A stretch of 64,000 nt of DNA from Blasia pusilla (taxonomy: Eukaryota), in NCBI GenBank assembly GCA_050084515.1, contig CM114271.1, forward strand, positions 49,166,001-49,230,000, written 5' to 3'. The first letter of the stretch is position 1. Each line of letters begins with the position of its first letter. Under the pieces are notes generated by a model, which ran no database searches, was not told where the DNA came from, and worked only from the letters and a program-made list of their open reading frames with translations. Both the position numbers and the translations under genes were made by a program. Below, piece by piece: positions 46,369 to 63,600 of the stretch.

Positions 46369-47307
46369 TCACACATTGCGGTGATGCATGAAGTCATGTC
46401 GGGTCAAACTCTCCTCAAAGTTGGGATCCGTCAACGAGCGCTCTTTCAACATCTTTGAATGCTCGGCTTGGATGTAGTGGGGCTTTACCCCCAAGCAAAG
46501 CCTCTCTTTCATATAATTCTTCGGATCATCTAAAATCCTAGGAGAAAACTTCTTCGGTATATCTATGCATGGTTTGTCATCCTTTCCATGGCATGGATTG
46601 TTGGCTTTATCCACATGAGCTCTATTTTTGTAGGTGATCTTTGCAGCGTGCGGAGGAGTGATGATTTCAAGGACTGTAAAATGAAATGGACACCCACGTT
46701 TGCAACAATCACCTCGACTTATAATTTTTCCTCGCGGCCTACTACCTCTTCCACTTTTGGGGACAATAGAGCTGTAAAACAAAAAAGGAGCTGATGTGAA
46801 ATTAACATACTAAACCATTCCTAACTGAATGGTCATCCACTCTCCTCAATAATAAAAGTTTGAAATATATGAATGGATAGGAGAAGATAGTCAACACCTC
46901 TGAACAATCTCTTGATGCATTTGGTGCAGATCAGTTGGGCCATACGCACAATAGTATATTGTGTACAATGGACACCCTCCATCCACGTCTCTGGAGCAGC
47001 CCTTGCCCAATCTTGACATTCCTTTCAAGAATGTTGTGGGGTTCCTTCCATCGCCATGACCCTCGCCAAGAATGAAATCATATAATCTTTCCCAAGGTAT
47101 GTATGCTACATGATCGTCATCCCAGGAAAGCTCGTTGGCTCTGATAAGTCTTGGAGGAATATTAGTTTGAACGAAAATCTTGTTCATGGATAATATCCTC
47201 CTTCTTAAAGAGCTACCACTTGCAAGCATATCAAATATGGCCATTTCGGGGAGGCCAATTCTGTGATCAATGTTTTCTTGTATGTTAATAAGACAAAAAG
47301 AAGACAT
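46369..47307 (-). pseudogene. Truncated SWIM/MULE-transposase-related gene (At4g13970/At1g60560-like N-terminus); intron 46772-46897
   Basis: AYIPWERLYDFILGE..PTTF, IYYCAYGPTD, KRGCPFHFTV, HVDK..PCHG, recalled from that family. A phase-2 GT-AG intron joins the two ORFs in frame. No catalytic or SWIM part follows. Confidence 0.75.
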
Positions 47308-47460
47308 GTCAAAAGTGCGCTATTGAAACATCTACTAATTTGGTTGGACATGGTTTAACAAAAGGCATGTATTGGGTTTTTAGGTGAATGAAGAAGTCTA
47401 CATTAGGTTCCCATTTTGCATTTCTACTTCATAAGGATCCTACCCCTATCCATTACCAGT

Positions 47461-58573: not shown

Positions 58574-61500
58574 ATGTTCCCTTACTTAGCTGAGTCGACA
58601 TCCTCGCCAACTTGAGTTGGGCCTCCCCTAAAGAGACTAAAGGGGCAAACCTCTATAGTTTTGGGCAAACCATGTCAAGCTCATCCACCTAATCTCATGA
58701 TGCCGCAACACATACAACTCATGCTCTATTCATGATCATCAGTCCATGCATCCTAATGAAAACATTCATAAGGCATTCCTCATTCAAGACAAATTTTGGA
58801 CACTTTCTTGAATTCTTGGGATTTCCAAGTTTTAGCATACCATTAATGCCATATTGCAGAGAAAAATCCAACCAATGGAAACACTACAAACCAAGCCACC
58901 ACGCTCAAAATCTAGTCTCATCATCTAACTTCCCTATAATTTCCTACTTCTAAACTCCTCTAGAAGTTACCCAACATGAGTAAGATTAGTTTCTAGTCCC
59001 CATGTTCTTTTGCATAAATCATAATCTTTCCATGCCACTCAATATTCATTTACTAATCTAAGGCCTCCCTTTACTCTACACTCATCAACTATAATGTTGA
59101 CTTCCAACTCCTCTTGGTCTTCGACTATTATTGGATTGGGTTGCAATAGCCTTATTTGAGAGAGGTCTTGATCATCCATGAATACCTTTAGTTCACTAAC
59201 ATGGAACACATCATAAATTTGCCTCATCTCCAATTAATGACAATCTCAGTTGATATATCACCTCCTTAACCTTTTCAAGTATCTCAAAGGTTCCCTCATA
59301 TCTTGGCATCATCTTCCTAGAGATACTTGAAGGTAATTGGTGAGACTTTAGTCTTATCTAAACAAAATTTCCAACTTCAAAGCGCACATCTTGCCTATGA
59401 ACATCAACTTGCCACTTGTAGCGATGTCAATGCGTTCTAACAACGTAGAAGCCTCTCTATAGTCCTACAACTGCTTTTTCAAGAAGTCCTCCACTATCAG
59501 CATGGAACTCCTCACTTAATCTATTCTTCAAACCTAGTTCAAAGTTGAGGTTCTAGGATTTCATCCCACTACCAACAAAAATGGCATGTATCCTATCTCC
59601 GAATGCATGGAGTTATTAAATTAATCTTATTATACTAAAAATCCTCCATAGGAAAATGCGTTCCCCAATATGTTTGATCTACATAAAGCTTGGTTGTCTC
59701 ATAGATACTTCTTAAGCGCTAAGTTACACGTTTTGCTTGCCCCGCCATATTCAAGTAATAGCCTGAATTTAGGAGTAGATTTGGTTCTTGTGTCTCAAAC
59801 AGACATGTCCAAAACTTCAAGATAAACTTAGTGTCTCGATCCGATACTAACTCACTTTGGTAAACACCAATGTTTGAAAATATTATCAAAAAAAGATAAG
59901 CTACCTCTGAAACTGTAACTATGTTTCAAGTTAGATTGAAAACTCCCATCTTTGAAAATCAATATACCACTACCATGATCCAATTTAAACCCTCTAACTC
60001 AAATAATCCCACGATAAAATCCATCGCAACACTTCCTTATGGTCTGCGCGGAATTGGTATAAGAGTGTTTCCCTAACGTCTTGCCATGGTCGATTTGGTT
60101 CTTTTGAGAAACCAGACAAGATTGGACATAATTTTATGGTATCCTAGCTTGAGATGTCCAATAGGACTATTTTTTAACAATCTCCAAGATCACTACCTAA
60201 CAAAGATGCCCTACCCAAGGTGCATCACTGTGAACCTTGAGAACCTTGGTGCTTAAACTCTAAAAAACATATATCCTTTGTTCCTTCCATTTCAAAACAA
60301 CATCCATGAGAGTAGCATGTTTCAAACTTGTTCCCTTCTTCAGAGGCTTTAACCTTCTTTGGGCGATTTCATTGTGCTCGTAGATGACCTTCACCGAGTT
60401 CCTCTCAAGTATTGCTTCCACCTATTGCAGGCGTCAAATATCACATTATCCTTTCCCGACTTATAGAAATTTTCCATATCAAATCTTGCTAGGAATTCTT
60501 GCCAATAGAGGTTTTTTGGTGATAGCTTCTTTTGAATTGAAAAATATTGTCTAGTGATGTCAGTATAACCTTGAAGTGCGGACTATGGAACAAAAATATA
60601 ATTCCCACTTCTTGAGGCAGTCAATCACCGCATACATCTTTCTCACATGAATGGGCTAGTTGGTCTCTAGCTTGGCCAACTTATAAGAAACTAGTTGATG
60701 TGTTTGGTTCAACACTCCCCCAATTGCAAAGTTAGACATATCCATCAAAACTTCGAATGAGACCCCAATTTCCAACAACTTGAGTATAGGAGGGTTCCTT
60801 ACTATGAATTTAGTTGCTTAGACACCTCCTCACACTCCTAAAATCATCGAAATACCATTGCTTTCTACATCAAGTCATAGAGTGGTGTAGTAATCGTAGC
60901 TACATCTTAGATGTACCTTTTATACAAAATTACAAATCCAACCAATGACCTCTTGATCAAATTCCTTGAAACTGACCAAAACTTAATAGCCTCAAGCTTC
61001 TTATGATTGGGTCGTATGCCTTCCATTATGAATGTGTGTCACAATTCCTTCCACTTCTTGGATGTGAAGGAATATTTAGAAGGTTTTGCAACAAATTTTT
61101 TTATTCCTCAAACGACACAAGACTTCTTTCAGGAGAACCTTGTGGTCTTCCTAGGTCACCGAATATATGAGGATTTCATTGAAAAACACCACTACTCTCC
61201 TATCTAACAAATCTTGAAAGATCATAATATTCATGAGAGTCATAAATGTAGCTAGCGCATTAGTTAGTCAAAACAACATCACTAGGAACGTATGGGATCC
61301 AAATATTCTCCTCATCATGATCTTATGTTCATCCCCTTTTTTTATTTAGATTTGGTAATATCCTTGCCGTAGGTCTATCTTGGTAAAATACTTTGACGCC
61401 GCCACCGCATCAAATAAGTCATCTGCCAAAGGCAATGGATACTTGATCTTTATGGTCTTCTTTTTAAGCGCCTTGTAATCCACACACAAGCACATAGACC

Positions 61501-63600
61501 CATCCTCCTTTGAGATGAAAAGGGAAGGTTCTCCACATGTCCACGTACTCATGCAAATGAACCCACTTTCCTCCGATGCCTTAATGTCCTCAGATCATAT
61601 TGGAGTTGCCTTTCTTGGGGAGTCATCCTCCAAGGGTTCATGGTAATTTGGTTTGTTTTGGGTTAGAGTTCAATCTTATAACCCATGTTTTGCCTAGGAA
61701 ATAACCCTTTTGAAAGTTCTCAAGTTAAGATGTCCCCAAATCCTTGCAAGATTTTCCACACTTTAGGCGCACGGTTTCCTTTCTTGTTCCTCCTTTGGTG
61801 GTGCATCCTCCAATTCAAACTCAACTTTTAACGTGACTCCCCAGCATTGGAACTCACCTTTGAGATCTTTTCCAAGTTGCTTGGCTGAAATCAATTGAGC
61901 AACGTGCTTTATTTGATTAACCTCAATATTTAAGGACTAAATTTGTGCTTTGAATCTGAAGAAACCTCAAGAATCCTCATGGCATTTCCATTATCAAGAG
62001 AAACCTCCAATACGCCTTTAGCTGATTTAATTACTATGGCATGTCTATGCAAAAACCTTAGTGATAAAATAACATCTTTGCTGCCCAAGCTACATACTAG
62101 AGAATTTCCCTAGCGTTAAACTTGGCTTCCACTCCTAGAATCACCATCTCAATGTTCAAAACTTGGGTTGAGGTGGTTCCCAAGTATCCATCCATATTTA
62201 TCACAACTTGGGGTTTCTCCATGGAGATTATTGGCGCTCCCAACCTCTCCATTGCCTTCAGATCAAGGAAGTTGCAGGTTGCCCTTGTGTGAATCAAACC
62301 AACCACGGATTTTCCTGCAATCAGTATCTCAACTAGAAATTGGCACTTACTACCATCCTAATGTGACTCCTTTGAAGCTAGGCTCATCACCTCCCCTCCA
62401 CTCATTCCGTGAAGGCTCTCGATCAAACACGTTAAATGTCAAGGCTAGTCTCCCTTATAAGGTCAACGTCCTCACACTTGTTGATTGCTCTCGCTCGCTA
62501 CACCTACGGTCGGGCCTTTCATACATTGGCCCCTTTTTCCTTTGGGCACTCCTGCTTGAAATGACTAGGATTACAACAAACATGACACCCTCTAGCATCA
62601 GGTTCACTGAACGTCGTCCCTTGCTTGGAACATGGCAAGTTTTGAGGTTTGAACATTATAGGTTCTAACTTTCCATGCGGCCTTATATTATCTCATTGGG
62701 TTTCTTCTTGTTCACCTTGTCAGACAAAACCCTTGTCTTTGTAAAAGGGATCACCTTGTCTCACTTCTTACAGCTCAGATCGTCCGCCACGAGTTGAGTA
62801 GCCATGTCAATGGCCACCTTTCGCTTCCCAAACTTGGTTTCCGACGTAGTAATTTTCTATCTTTGTTTTTTTTAAAACTTGGGCAGCATTGCATCCACAA
62901 AGTTGAAGATTTGAATGGCGTCTGACATACCATTAATCACTTCCAACCTCACTTGGAATTGAGAAATAAAACTTGCAATTGAGCCTCCCAACTACACTTT
63001 TCGCAAGTGAATTCTAGCTTGGGTCACATGATCTTGAAGTGCTTAAAAGCTTCTCATTTTTTAGATAAGCACCCCAATCTGGCTCCATGGTGTTCCCATC
63101 CTTACAAAATTATTGGTAACATTTTAGTGGATATGTCTCTAATTTCAAAGAGGCCTCAACTCCCCACTTGGCTCTTGAGACCTAGTAAGTCCCAAAAACA
63201 TTGATATACTCTACCAATCGTGACCCATTAATTGAGGCGCTTGATATCCATATTGCTCCTATACACAAGTAACTTCTTCTTCATGTCTCCCAATTGATAC
63301 CCTAGGGAAAAGACCAAATTTGAACTACATGCCTTTATGGTCTCCCCAACCACATTGTCCATCTAGGATTGCGGTTGTTCCTTCAACGCCCTCAAAGATG
63401 GCACACTAAACCTACTTGAAACTCGCGGGCAATTGAACCATCACAACCTTCCTCTTCATCATTACTGATTCTTTTGGCTCACCCATATGGGCGTCATACC
63501 ACAGAGGTCTAGTTCCTCCAACAAGTTACCAAGAATCTTGGACAAGGAGTTTTTTCCAATCAATGTTTCATCTTCCTAACCCTCATCATCATCGAGGATT
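58574..63600 (-). mobile_element. Old, heavily degraded gypsy chromovirus internal region, continuing beyond the right arm
   Basis: KEDGSMCLCVDYKAL..YPLPLADDLFD..FTKIDLRQGYYQI (61346-61552), protease-like GLIHTRATCNFL (62097-62306), chromodomain remnant at ~58950-59120. The 5' limit is approximate. Confidence 0.8.

Follow-up and report, generated by a model that had tools for sequence, protein, structure and literature searches.

The window analysed here is a stretch of 64,000 nucleotides (nt) from Blasia pusilla (assembly GCA_050084515.1, contig CM114271.1, positions 49,166,001 to 49,230,000). As assembled, it contains one large inverted repeat, set in what looks like the nuclear genome of this liverwort. 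The left arm (36509-46388, + strand) and the right arm (51399-61289, - strand) are 99.39% identical when 36509-46388 is aligned with 61289-51399 (9906 columns, of which 19 are mismatches and 41 are gaps), and they enclose a spacer of 5010 nt (46389-51398). Each arm is made of two fused blocks, which we call g and b. On the left, g occupies 36509-41641 and b, the genic block, occupies 41642-46388 (both + strand); their right-arm counterparts are g' (56140-61289) and b' (51399-56139). The blocks differ in base composition, with a GC content of 0.48-0.50 in b versus 0.38-0.43 in g. The g/b junction (J1) lies at 41641/41642 in the left arm and at 56140/56139 in the right arm. The left outer junction (J2, 36506-36509) joins g to a flank designated X, and the sequences flanking this end are unlike those at the right outer end. 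Overlaps at the junctions are ordinary and short, such as the 4-nt TGCA at the left inner junction between b and the spacer (46385-46389).

The outer part of the arms is, by its domain order, the relic of a Ty3/gypsy retrotransposon: four pol proteins (P0010, P0043, P0003, and P0011) give collinear tblastn matches in the order reverse transcriptase (RT), RNase H, integrase, and C-terminal SH3/chromo domain, and RVT_1, RT_RNaseH_2, and SH3_Tf2-1 are detected by Pfam. The relic is decayed, with many frame breaks, and a search for a pair of LTRs belonging to it found none. In the left arm it spans 36509-38840 (+ strand; tblastn with all four proteins, Pfam RT_RNaseH_2), and in the right arm 58940-61564 (- strand; tblastn, with RVT_1 at 61349-61594). 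At the right outer end (61289/61290) the relic is unbroken: a single tblastn match runs from 61564 to 60593 (residues 280-610 of P0010), and the same uninterrupted crossing is obtained with P0043, P0003, and P0011 as queries. The left-arm relic instead starts abruptly at 36509, at approximately residue 362, where it abuts an integrase-core fragment in the opposite orientation (35749-35997, - strand; Pfam rve, E 1.2e-06). This fragment of flank X comes from a decayed, unrelated retroelement and has no DNA similarity to the arms; the depth of matches in two runs from relatives (X1 and X2, described below) is high at 35000-36101, so its region is a high-copy repeat. An earlier reading of the window made from its letters, the sequence-only reading, had noted that the gypsy RT carries on beyond the right outer end but stops at the left one, and both the tblastn and the Pfam results bear this out.

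Block b carries a PF14476 ('petal formation-expressed'/At4g22030-like) gene, the best named homologues of which are liverwort proteins with 57-63% identity. The left-arm copy (42520-43617, + strand; Pfam E 3.8e-75) has its conserved part in a single frame by tblastn. In the right-arm copy (54165-55260, - strand) the conserved part is divided between two frames (-2 and -3), and 1-nt gaps at the equivalents of 42747 and 42772 are found in the right arm only.

The spacer is composed of two unlike parts. Its left part (46389-49081) is a patchwork of multi-copy, transposon-like pieces with open reading frames (ORFs) on the - strand, arrays of 21-nt (47441-47634) and 72-nt (48479-48822) units, and breakpoints relative to the relatives at 46385, 48007, 48278, and 49063/49082. 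Reads from two relatives that cover the left end of the spacer (13 from X9 and 70 from X12) depart from the window exactly at 46385, and to the left of this position they carry one common other sequence (agreement 0.93-0.96). A cut at 46385 would follow naturally from a left arm that is itself the copy, with filler as the left part of the spacer. The right part (49082-51398) is low-copy, with X1 and X2 depths like those of block b, and contains a weak BED-finger ORF (49404-49745, - strand; Pfam zf-BED, E 0.0015, under the cut-off). A cluster of four copies of the motif GTGGAATGGCTTC lies at the inner end of the left arm (45999-46175, + strand); exact copies occur at this inner end and, on the same strand, in the left part of the spacer, and nowhere else. 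They offer independent, weaker support for the idea that the two belong together.

The sequence-only reading had also relied on a MULE-like ORF said to run past the left inner end. This 146-aa ORF (46369-46809, - strand) has just 17 coding nt and a stop inside the arm. Pfam gives no match for it at E≤1, and of the 68 word-sharing candidates above 257 aa none matched; in Atlas it gives weak GCM/FAR1-type leads, with recognition under the usual level. The 327-aa ORF beside it has 0 matches in 1.84 billion representatives. No Pfam family for a Mutator-type transposase or DNA-binding domain was detected at E≤1 in the 87 ORFs of 43600-51600, the two ends of the spacer are not inverted repeats of one another, and no terminal repeat pair was found at the two inner junctions. 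The identification of the spacer ORF as part of a MULE (Mutator-like) transposon is not supported, having neither transposase domain nor homologues nor terminal repeats behind it, and the ORF says nothing about which inner end is native.

Differences between the arms are unevenly distributed. The outer 779 nt (36509-37287, with the right-arm counterpart at 60511-61289; 7.9% of the arm) are set off by a clustering of substitutions and are referred to here as the rim: they hold 14 of the 24 substitutions and none of the 15 indels (binomial p 3e-10). Divergence is 1.8% in the rim versus approximately 0.05-0.1% over the remaining 9.1 kb, the core, in which there are about 5 substitution events. 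The step is abrupt, as the 14 substitutions of the rim are followed by none in the next 459 nt and by few beyond. When the rim was polarised with 18 pol homologues, the left arm was found to be derived at 36554, 36606, and 36854 and the right arm at 36725 and 37059-37060; because derived states are present on both arms, the divergence of the rim fits elapsed time and not one-sided copying errors. At 36554, 36606, and 36668 the letter in all four runs from relatives is that of the right arm (6/6, 6/6, and 7/7 reads in X9; 13/13, 18/18, and 24/24 in X12). Differences in the core are mostly 1-nt indels, many of them in homopolymers, on both arms, and the age of the core is uncertain, since these indels may be consensus errors. 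The contrast between the rim (1.8%) and the core (≤0.1%) fits arm-to-arm gene conversion and equally a younger second copy, and the step itself is explained equally well by gene conversion in an old palindrome made in one step.

The four runs consist of two contig-type runs from two related accessions (X1 and X2) and two read sets from relatives (X9 and X12). They diverge by 1-2% from the window and come from individuals other than the sequenced one; reads at least 99% alike to the window number 247 out of 998 in X9 and 578 out of 2942 in X12. In both contig-type runs g and b are apart. Contigs tracking g match the window up to 41643 and then continue with 88 (X1) or 366 (X2) unlike letters, and contigs on b have a match that ends at 41642, with a 2-nt overlap between the two sets (41642-41643), so that junction J1, present in both arms of the window, is absent from these contigs. 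One X2 contig runs on one strand, in the left-arm orientation, from flank X (35944-36505) through 139 other letters into b (41642-45193). This joint between X and b was found in one of the four runs, on one assembled contig of one accession; the 89 unlike letters to the left of 41642 in X1 are consistent with it. The left end of b has a single continuation in the relatives (89 nt in X1; 139 nt and then X in X2). The X2 contig on g begins its match at 36509 and is preceded there by 108 letters that are not X. The relatives could themselves carry rearrangements.

The sequence-only reading had argued that a single inverted copying event leaves one arm with two native ends, which is sound, and that here each arm has one native and one novel end, implying an inversion of the spacer. 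With respect to these crossed junctions, the right outer end is indeed native and the left outer end novel, and each flank keeps something native; the evidence drawn from the ORF at the inner end is invalid. Nothing observed calls for or demonstrates an inversion of the spacer. The ancestral order implied by flip-flop through a crossover between arms is contradicted by the X1 and X2 contigs, as is that implied by the staggered-break inversion offered in its place. The template-switch origin named as a further alternative comes close to the repair copying described below, with its inversion part unneeded. As for the proposed comparison with the locus of a relative, the contigs place g and b apart and b 139 nt from flank X; they do not contain one native g-b block.

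The reading that we favour, tentatively and at somewhat less than an even chance, is that this is a nuclear palindrome built in at least two copying steps by homology-primed repair, without any flip of the spacer. The ancestral order would have been flank X, 139 nt, b, spacer material, a block Q, and then g' in the opposite orientation with its upstream part G1' (block Q and the 139 nt are placed by position, their letters never having been seen). In an older step, an inverted copy of g (5.1 kb) would have been inserted between X and b during repair of a break, yielding the novel junctions X/g (36508/36509) and g/b (41641/41642) and a first inverted repeat, g/g'. In a recent step, a break in or beside the right g' would have led to invasion of the left g for repair, with copying inward through the g/b junction and the whole of b before rejoining at 51398. 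This would place b' beside g', mirror the g/b junction exactly, and leave the older divergence in the outer 0.8 kb of g/g'; a long tract of arm-to-arm gene conversion may have had the same effect in place of this second step. The left arm would then have b native beside X, a novel outer end, and an imported g, and the right arm a native g' continuous with G1' and a probably novel inner end, so that the crossed pattern would be attained without inverting the spacer. Block g is taken as native on the right because the pol relic is continuous over 61289/61290 and because 108 letters other than X precede g in X2. What is directly observed is the repeat, the step between rim and core, the unbroken gypsy relic at the right outer end, and the separation of g and b in the relatives; which step came first, which way the copying ran, and what kind of junctions the inner ends are have been inferred. 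The proposed mechanism would match the double-strand-break model of plastid inverted-repeat (IR) expansion, or break-induced replication. On the contigs of two runs, b appears beside one repeat copy in X1 and X2 and in both arms of the window, as expected of a single-copy neighbour doubled by IR expansion, and the extension appears to begin within older repeat homology, to judge by the two-sided derived states of the rim. The sharing of GTGGAATGGCTTC between the left inner end and the adjacent part of the spacer agrees with a left inner junction older than the second step. The halt of that step at 46388 has to be a coincidence under stepwise copying, because the transposon-like element of the spacer is cut there (46385) when set beside its other copies.

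This cut speaks for a different history, which we regard as unlikely: b' and g' would first have been joined on the right (for example by an inversion with breakpoints at 139/b and Q/g, possibly as part of one complex event), and g-b would then have been copied inverted beside X, with transposon filler at 46389-49081, so that the right arm has both ends native and the left arm both novel; the core would have become identical afterwards, through gene conversion between the arms. The left inner end would then be a TGCA microhomology junction at which the spacer element is cut (13 X9 and 70 X12 reads), and the sharing of GTGGAATGGCTTC would follow without coincidence from a switch to a different copy of an element with the same motif. 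The patchwork of the left part of the spacer, with its further breakpoints at 48007, 48278, and 49063/49082, the low-copy right part, with X1 and X2 depths like b, and the novel left outer end also agree with such a history. It requires an extra inversion, however, the left breakpoint of which is then reused; a single age predicts even divergence, and the 1.8% rim would need conversion that spared the outer 0.8 kb alone. Moreover, changes on both arms of the rim are unexplained by error-prone synthesis of the left copy alone. An artefact, in which part of the palindrome or the orientation of the spacer was mis-joined by the long-read assembler, is improbable: fold-back read chimeras have neither a 5-kb unique spacer nor distinct flanks, the junctions show ordinary short overlaps, and errors do not yield a rim of 14 clean substitutions with no indels and with both arms derived. 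What keeps it in consideration is that the four runs compared come from other individuals, that the left-arm-specific letters at 36554, 36606, and 36668 occur in none of the four, and that the core differences, mostly 1-nt indels, are like consensus errors.

The two inversion models conflict with the order of the blocks in the relatives. Both imply that X was the neighbour of the spacer's far end and that g and b formed one native block; the related accessions contradict both points. If a native g-b block was copied inverted once and the spacer was then flipped by a crossover between arms, possibly still flipping, X has to be a random neighbour of the insertion, whereas X1 and X2 have g and b apart and, in X2, 139 nt separate X from a block b in left-arm orientation. 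Arms of 9.9 kb with 99.4% identity and a 5-kb spacer are a good substrate for such a crossover, rare inversions of spacer or arms by intrachromatid crossover are documented in a human Y palindrome (PMC3723533), the gypsy relic is native solely at the right outer end, and the sharing of GTGGAATGGCTTC favours a native left inner end. The ORF evidence at the inner junction is void, however, and a crossover does not produce the step between rim and core. Flipping would leave the local junctions unchanged, so that nothing observed here speaks positively for it, and the two spacer orientations are distinguishable solely with reads that exceed the arm length; we put this model at a small probability, a little above that of the artefact. 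Least probable of all is a single inversion by staggered or chromatid breaks that duplicated the sequence between the cuts (the model of Ranz et al.). In this model each arm receives a native and a novel junction by construction, and the model is documented in 17 of 29 Drosophila inversions (PMC1885836), but the order that it implies (X by the far spacer end, or G1 by the spacer) conflicts with the contigs and with tblastn, staggered breaks at two sites predict b-g on the left and not the mirrored g-b of both arms, and the duplicated block is not contiguous in the relatives, where X1 and X2 contigs break at 41641-41643 from both sides. The duplications described in that source reach approximately 1.9 kb at most, versus 9.9 kb here, and the step between rim and core is left unexplained.

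Returning to stepwise repair copying, we consider it rather unlikely, slightly more so than the copied left arm, that the locus is a liverwort nuclear palindrome caught growing, with an older rim that can be dated and a young core almost identical between the arms. If so, a break beside a small founding repeat would have been mended by 9 kb of copying across the repeat boundary, a mechanism proposed for plastid IR expansion that here would have doubled a nuclear gene. The arms may then still exchange, and both spacer orientations could occur in the population.

Several known systems resemble this locus in part. Inversions by staggered breaks, flanked by inverted duplications (Ranz et al. 2007, as described in PMC1885836), likewise have non-repetitive sequence duplicated in inverted orientation, and each copy there has a native and a novel junction, as may be the case here; here, however, the required outgroup order is not found, the duplication is fivefold the largest described there, and the arms consist of two fused blocks. 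Fold-back inverted duplications with a spacer, as described by Hermetz et al. 2014 (PMC3907307), share the inverted duplication, a kb-scale single-copy spacer, and junction microhomology, but there one arm is fully native and the arms are open-ended, whereas this locus has composite arms and a boundary at each outer end. Palindromes of sex chromosomes, such as the human Y palindrome P6 with its arm-to-arm gene conversion and rare inversions (PMC3723533) and the primate X palindromes (PMC8327919), have long inverted arms that are more than 99% alike, a unique spacer, and a gene copy per arm, and multi-kb conversion tracts and rare inverting crossovers are documented for such systems. Their arms measure tens to hundreds of kb, in contrast to 9.9 kb here; our host is a haploid-dominant plant, the gene in one arm is out of frame, and any conversion or inversion would have to be read from the sequence of the locus. 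A further parallel is plastid IR expansion by 'ebb and flow' double-strand-break repair (Goulding et al. 1996, described in PMC2275221). This locus differs in being nuclear, with low-copy and transposon DNA, in having a pasted-in gypsy relic as its founding repeat, and in that growth is read from the contigs of X1 and X2 together with the divergence step, and not from a series of species. In plastid expansion as described there, and in the growth proposed here, a single-copy neighbour joins both copies of the repeat: the broken end of one copy enters the other and is extended past the repeat boundary, with one native and one novel boundary as the result.

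The locus contains one large inverted repeat, identified by repeat finding and BLAST, with a left arm at 36509-46388, a right arm at 61289-51399 and a 5010 nt spacer (46389-51398) between them. The arms are 99.39% identical across 9906 aligned columns (19 mismatches and 41 gap positions). No further copies of the arms are present elsewhere in the 64-kb window, which contains no N letters. Each arm carries a PF14476 gene (Pfam E 3.8e-75) whose best named homologues are proteins from Marchantia, Riccia and Calypogeia (57-63% identity), so the locus looks like liverwort nuclear DNA. 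The two copies of this gene (42520-43617, + strand, and 54165-55260, - strand) are three 1-nt indels apart: at 42536, a G present in the right copy and in all four runs of related accessions examined here is absent from the left copy, and the right copy lacks two bases (equivalent to 42747 and 42772) that are present in relatives, leaving its conserved part in two frames. One of the two copies looks broken, and what separates them may reflect either genuine decay or errors in the consensus.

Each arm comprises an outer block g (36509-41641; g' at 56140-61289 on the right) and an inner block b (41642-46388; b' at 51399-56139), which meet at the junction J1 (41641|41642). Two hairpin-forming sequences lie near breakpoints: a perfect 14-nt hairpin with a 4-nt loop (46321-46352, mirrored at 51435-51466), 36 nt from the inner end of the arms, and a 45-nt near-perfect palindrome (41754-41798, mirrored at 55983-56027), approximately 110 nt into block b from J1.

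Four gypsy pol proteins retrieved using the RT ORF were used as tblastn queries and, together with Pfam, show a collinear pol on both arms: RT, RNase H, integrase and then an SH3/chromo end. The sequence-only reading had stated that the gypsy RT runs past the right outer end and is cut at the left one, and both statements are borne out. On the right arm, a single HSP (61564->60593, residues 280-610 of query P0010) is unbroken over 61289|61290; on the left arm, the relic starts at approximately residue 362 at 36509, with an unrelated retroelement beyond. The approximately 10 residues that tblastn adds upstream of 36509 do not resemble the right flank at the DNA level and are taken as chance. 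The retroelement left of 36509 is decayed, with an integrase core at 35749-35997 (-), and its DNA is not similar to that of the arms; it was ruled out as an extension of the arm gypsy, as the DNA is unlike and the arm relic already includes an integrase/SH3 part. A recent, polymorphic insertion of an LTR retrotransposon was dropped as an explanation for block g because neither an LTR pair nor any likeness of 38800-41660 to the right flank (61290-64000) was found, and is further weakened by the many frame breaks in the arm relic and the absence of gag/protease upstream of 61564. A far better preserved gypsy element is located at 18164-24084 (-), with 354-nt terminal direct repeats that are 97% alike (18164-18517 and 23732-24084) and a nearly break-free pol (tblastn 21161->18552 versus P0010 residues 286-1179, 47% identity); it is unrelated to the arm relic at the DNA level.

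At the left inner end, a 'MULE-like' ORF had been described as continuing from arm into spacer. This ORF (46369-46809, -) has just 17 coding nt and its stop codon inside the arm. It has no Pfam match, including in an E<=1 scan of 43600-51600 that took in 87 ORFs on both strands; when it was compared with longer proteins, none of the 68 candidates scored was significant, and weak Atlas leads to GCM/FAR1-type clusters have a recognition value under the usual level. A 327-aa ORF, the largest in the spacer, lies over a tandem array of 72-nt period and has no matches in 1.84 billion representatives. The 'MULE-like' label is thus unproven, and ORF continuity over 46388|46389 is therefore evidence of nothing. 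The crossed pattern of native and novel ends proposed from these two elements is consequently half right: the outer-end evidence stands, and the inner-end ORF evidence does not.

Independently of this ORF, the left arm's inner end is linked to the left part of the spacer by shared short repeats. Exact copies of the 10-mer GGAATGGCTT lie at 46001 and 46129 in the arm (mirrored at 51649 and 51777) and at five sites in 47461-47587 in the spacer, with no exact occurrences elsewhere in the 64 kb; a 13-mer at <=3 mismatches forms three same-strand clusters (45999-46163, 47459-47606 and 48425-48887). No terminal inverted repeats span either inner junction. The spacer's tandem arrays, at 47441-47634 (21-nt period) and 48479-48822 (72-nt period), are both arranged around GGAATGG(C/G)TT, and the 327-aa ORF is largely the translated 72-nt array. 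In the low-copy right spacer, an ORF at 49404-49745 (-) weakly matches the BED zinc finger (E 0.0015; 18.9 bits versus a cut-off of 20.6).

Positions 35000-51500 were compared with four runs under one species label, each from a different study: two of reads (X9, WGS; X12, Hi-C) and two of contigs (X1 and X2). Divergence from the window is 1-2% in every run (in X9, for example, 247 of 998 reads are at least 99% alike), and the runs were therefore treated as relatives. A 4218-nt X2 contig is collinear with 35944-36505, continues through 139 other letters, and then follows 41642-45193: in this plant, the left flank lies beside block b in left-arm orientation, without 36506-41641. J1 itself is missing from the X1 and X2 relatives, because contigs on both sides of it run into unlike letters (88 and 366 letters in X1 and X2 contigs on 40746/41209-41643, and 89 letters on the left side of an X1 contig on 41642-43662), and so a junction that is identical in both window arms is absent from these plants. 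In the X2 contig that covers 36509-37655, the 108 letters ahead of 36509 do not match the left flank.

At the spacer's left end, reads match only from 46385 and share a different sequence before that point (13 X9 reads and 70 X12 reads, agreement 0.93-0.96), so the element in the spacer is cut at 46385, with a TGCA overlap with the arm end. Further breakpoints relative to these accessions occur at 48007, 48278 and 49063/49082, and the right-hand spacer sequence (from approximately 49880) is present in X1 and X2 at depths like those of block b. The relatives' sequences beyond 46385, 48007 and 49082 have no window match at <=3 mismatches; neither does that beyond 46123, which by eye is a diverged version of 46078-46107 only. 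Read depth was rejected as a measure of copy number, as X9 and X12 disagree and depth tracks base composition and gene-family content. Contig depth is very high at 35000-36101 in the left flank (X1 330-869, X2 262-748) and at 40510-41060 in block g (X1 117, X2 74) versus approximately 5-12 elsewhere; these are embedded high-copy repeats.

A MAFFT alignment of the arms has 24 substitutions and 15 indel events, which are unevenly distributed. The outer 779 nt, or rim, has 14 substitutions (36554-37287) and no indels, a divergence of 1.8%; the remaining 9.1 kb, or core, has 10 substitutions in approximately five events and all 15 indels (binomial p 3e-10 for the concentration of substitutions in the rim). 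When rim states were polarised against 18 pol homologues, the left arm was derived at 36554, 36606 and 36854 and the right arm at 36725 and 37059-37060. The right-arm letter is found in all four runs at 36554, 36606 and 36668 (X9 6/6, 6/6 and 7/7; X12 13/13, 18/18 and 24/24). Because both arms have derived states, the rim reflects ordinary two-sided divergence; one-sided error-prone synthesis was ruled out as the source of its substitutions on the same grounds. In the core, our own decomposition of X1/X2 contig gap counts, which is not tool output, implies left-derived states at 37753/37766, 38155, 38675, 41326, 42536 and 44307 and right-derived states at 39348-39364, 40995, 42747, 42772 and 43809. 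Such a pattern, with many indels and few substitutions on both arms, may in part stem from consensus errors in repeated sequence. The arms also differ in a complex way over 20 nt at 37747-37766 (60026-60051 on the right), where five substitutions occur together with indels of 1 nt and 7 nt; this site is 460 nt into the identical core, counted from where the diverged rim ends, and by gap count the X1 contig has the right-arm form.

We conclude that this nuclear palindrome is composite and has two layers. We read each flank as retaining its own native block (b beside the left flank, and g' continuous with the gypsy RT past 61290) and as having gained an inverted copy of the other's. On the same reading, one arm's J1 was copied from that of the other, because the fusion point is mirrored exactly, and the older homology is placed in outer g because of the step between rim and core. 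The simplest history is growth in two steps: an inverted copy of g would have been pasted between the left flank and b; at a later time, repair of a break within or next to g' would have used the left copy, with copying through J1 and b and rejoining at 51398. Such a route would give the crossed pattern without a flip. Its weakest points are the right inner junction, which is putative, the coincidence of the copying stop with the cut in the spacer's element, and the adjacency of left flank, 139 nt and b, which comes from a single contig. A further weak point is that the same rim/core picture would follow if a long tract of an old palindrome had undergone gene conversion.

A rival that takes the left arm to be the copy and invokes filler DNA accounts better for the cut element and patchwork spacer, but needs an extra inversion and a conversion that spared the rim alone. 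The spacer inversion implied by the sequence-only reading is unsupported. Flip-flop as an origin requires that g-b be a single native block, which the X1 and X2 contigs contradict, and it has no positive support, because a flip leaves no local trace. Flipping may be an ongoing process; rare inversions and frequent conversion are documented in Y palindrome P6 (PMC3723533, in excerpt). A staggered-break inversion, as excerpts of PMC1885836 describe it, predicts a different outgroup order and, if two sites were staggered, the order b-g, and yields duplications of only up to approximately 1.9 kb. An assembly artefact could account for the structure but is hard to square with the clean, two-sided 1.8% rim and the unique spacer.

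The origin and enlargement of nuclear palindromes usually have to be deduced from the end product. A locus that shows its founding rim and a mirrored fusion junction inside the arms, and whose relatives have the blocks apart, would yield a testable, stepwise natural history, and the main, modest value of this palindrome is as a possible natural example of such growth. Practical stakes are also modest, with one PF14476 gene duplicated. A caution follows: 'native versus novel' repeat ends alone do not diagnose a spacer flip, because composite arms are possible and a later event may set a repeat boundary. The two-step history favoured here is the same as the double-strand-break route proposed, in the excerpted part of PMC2275221, for large expansions of plastid inverted repeats.
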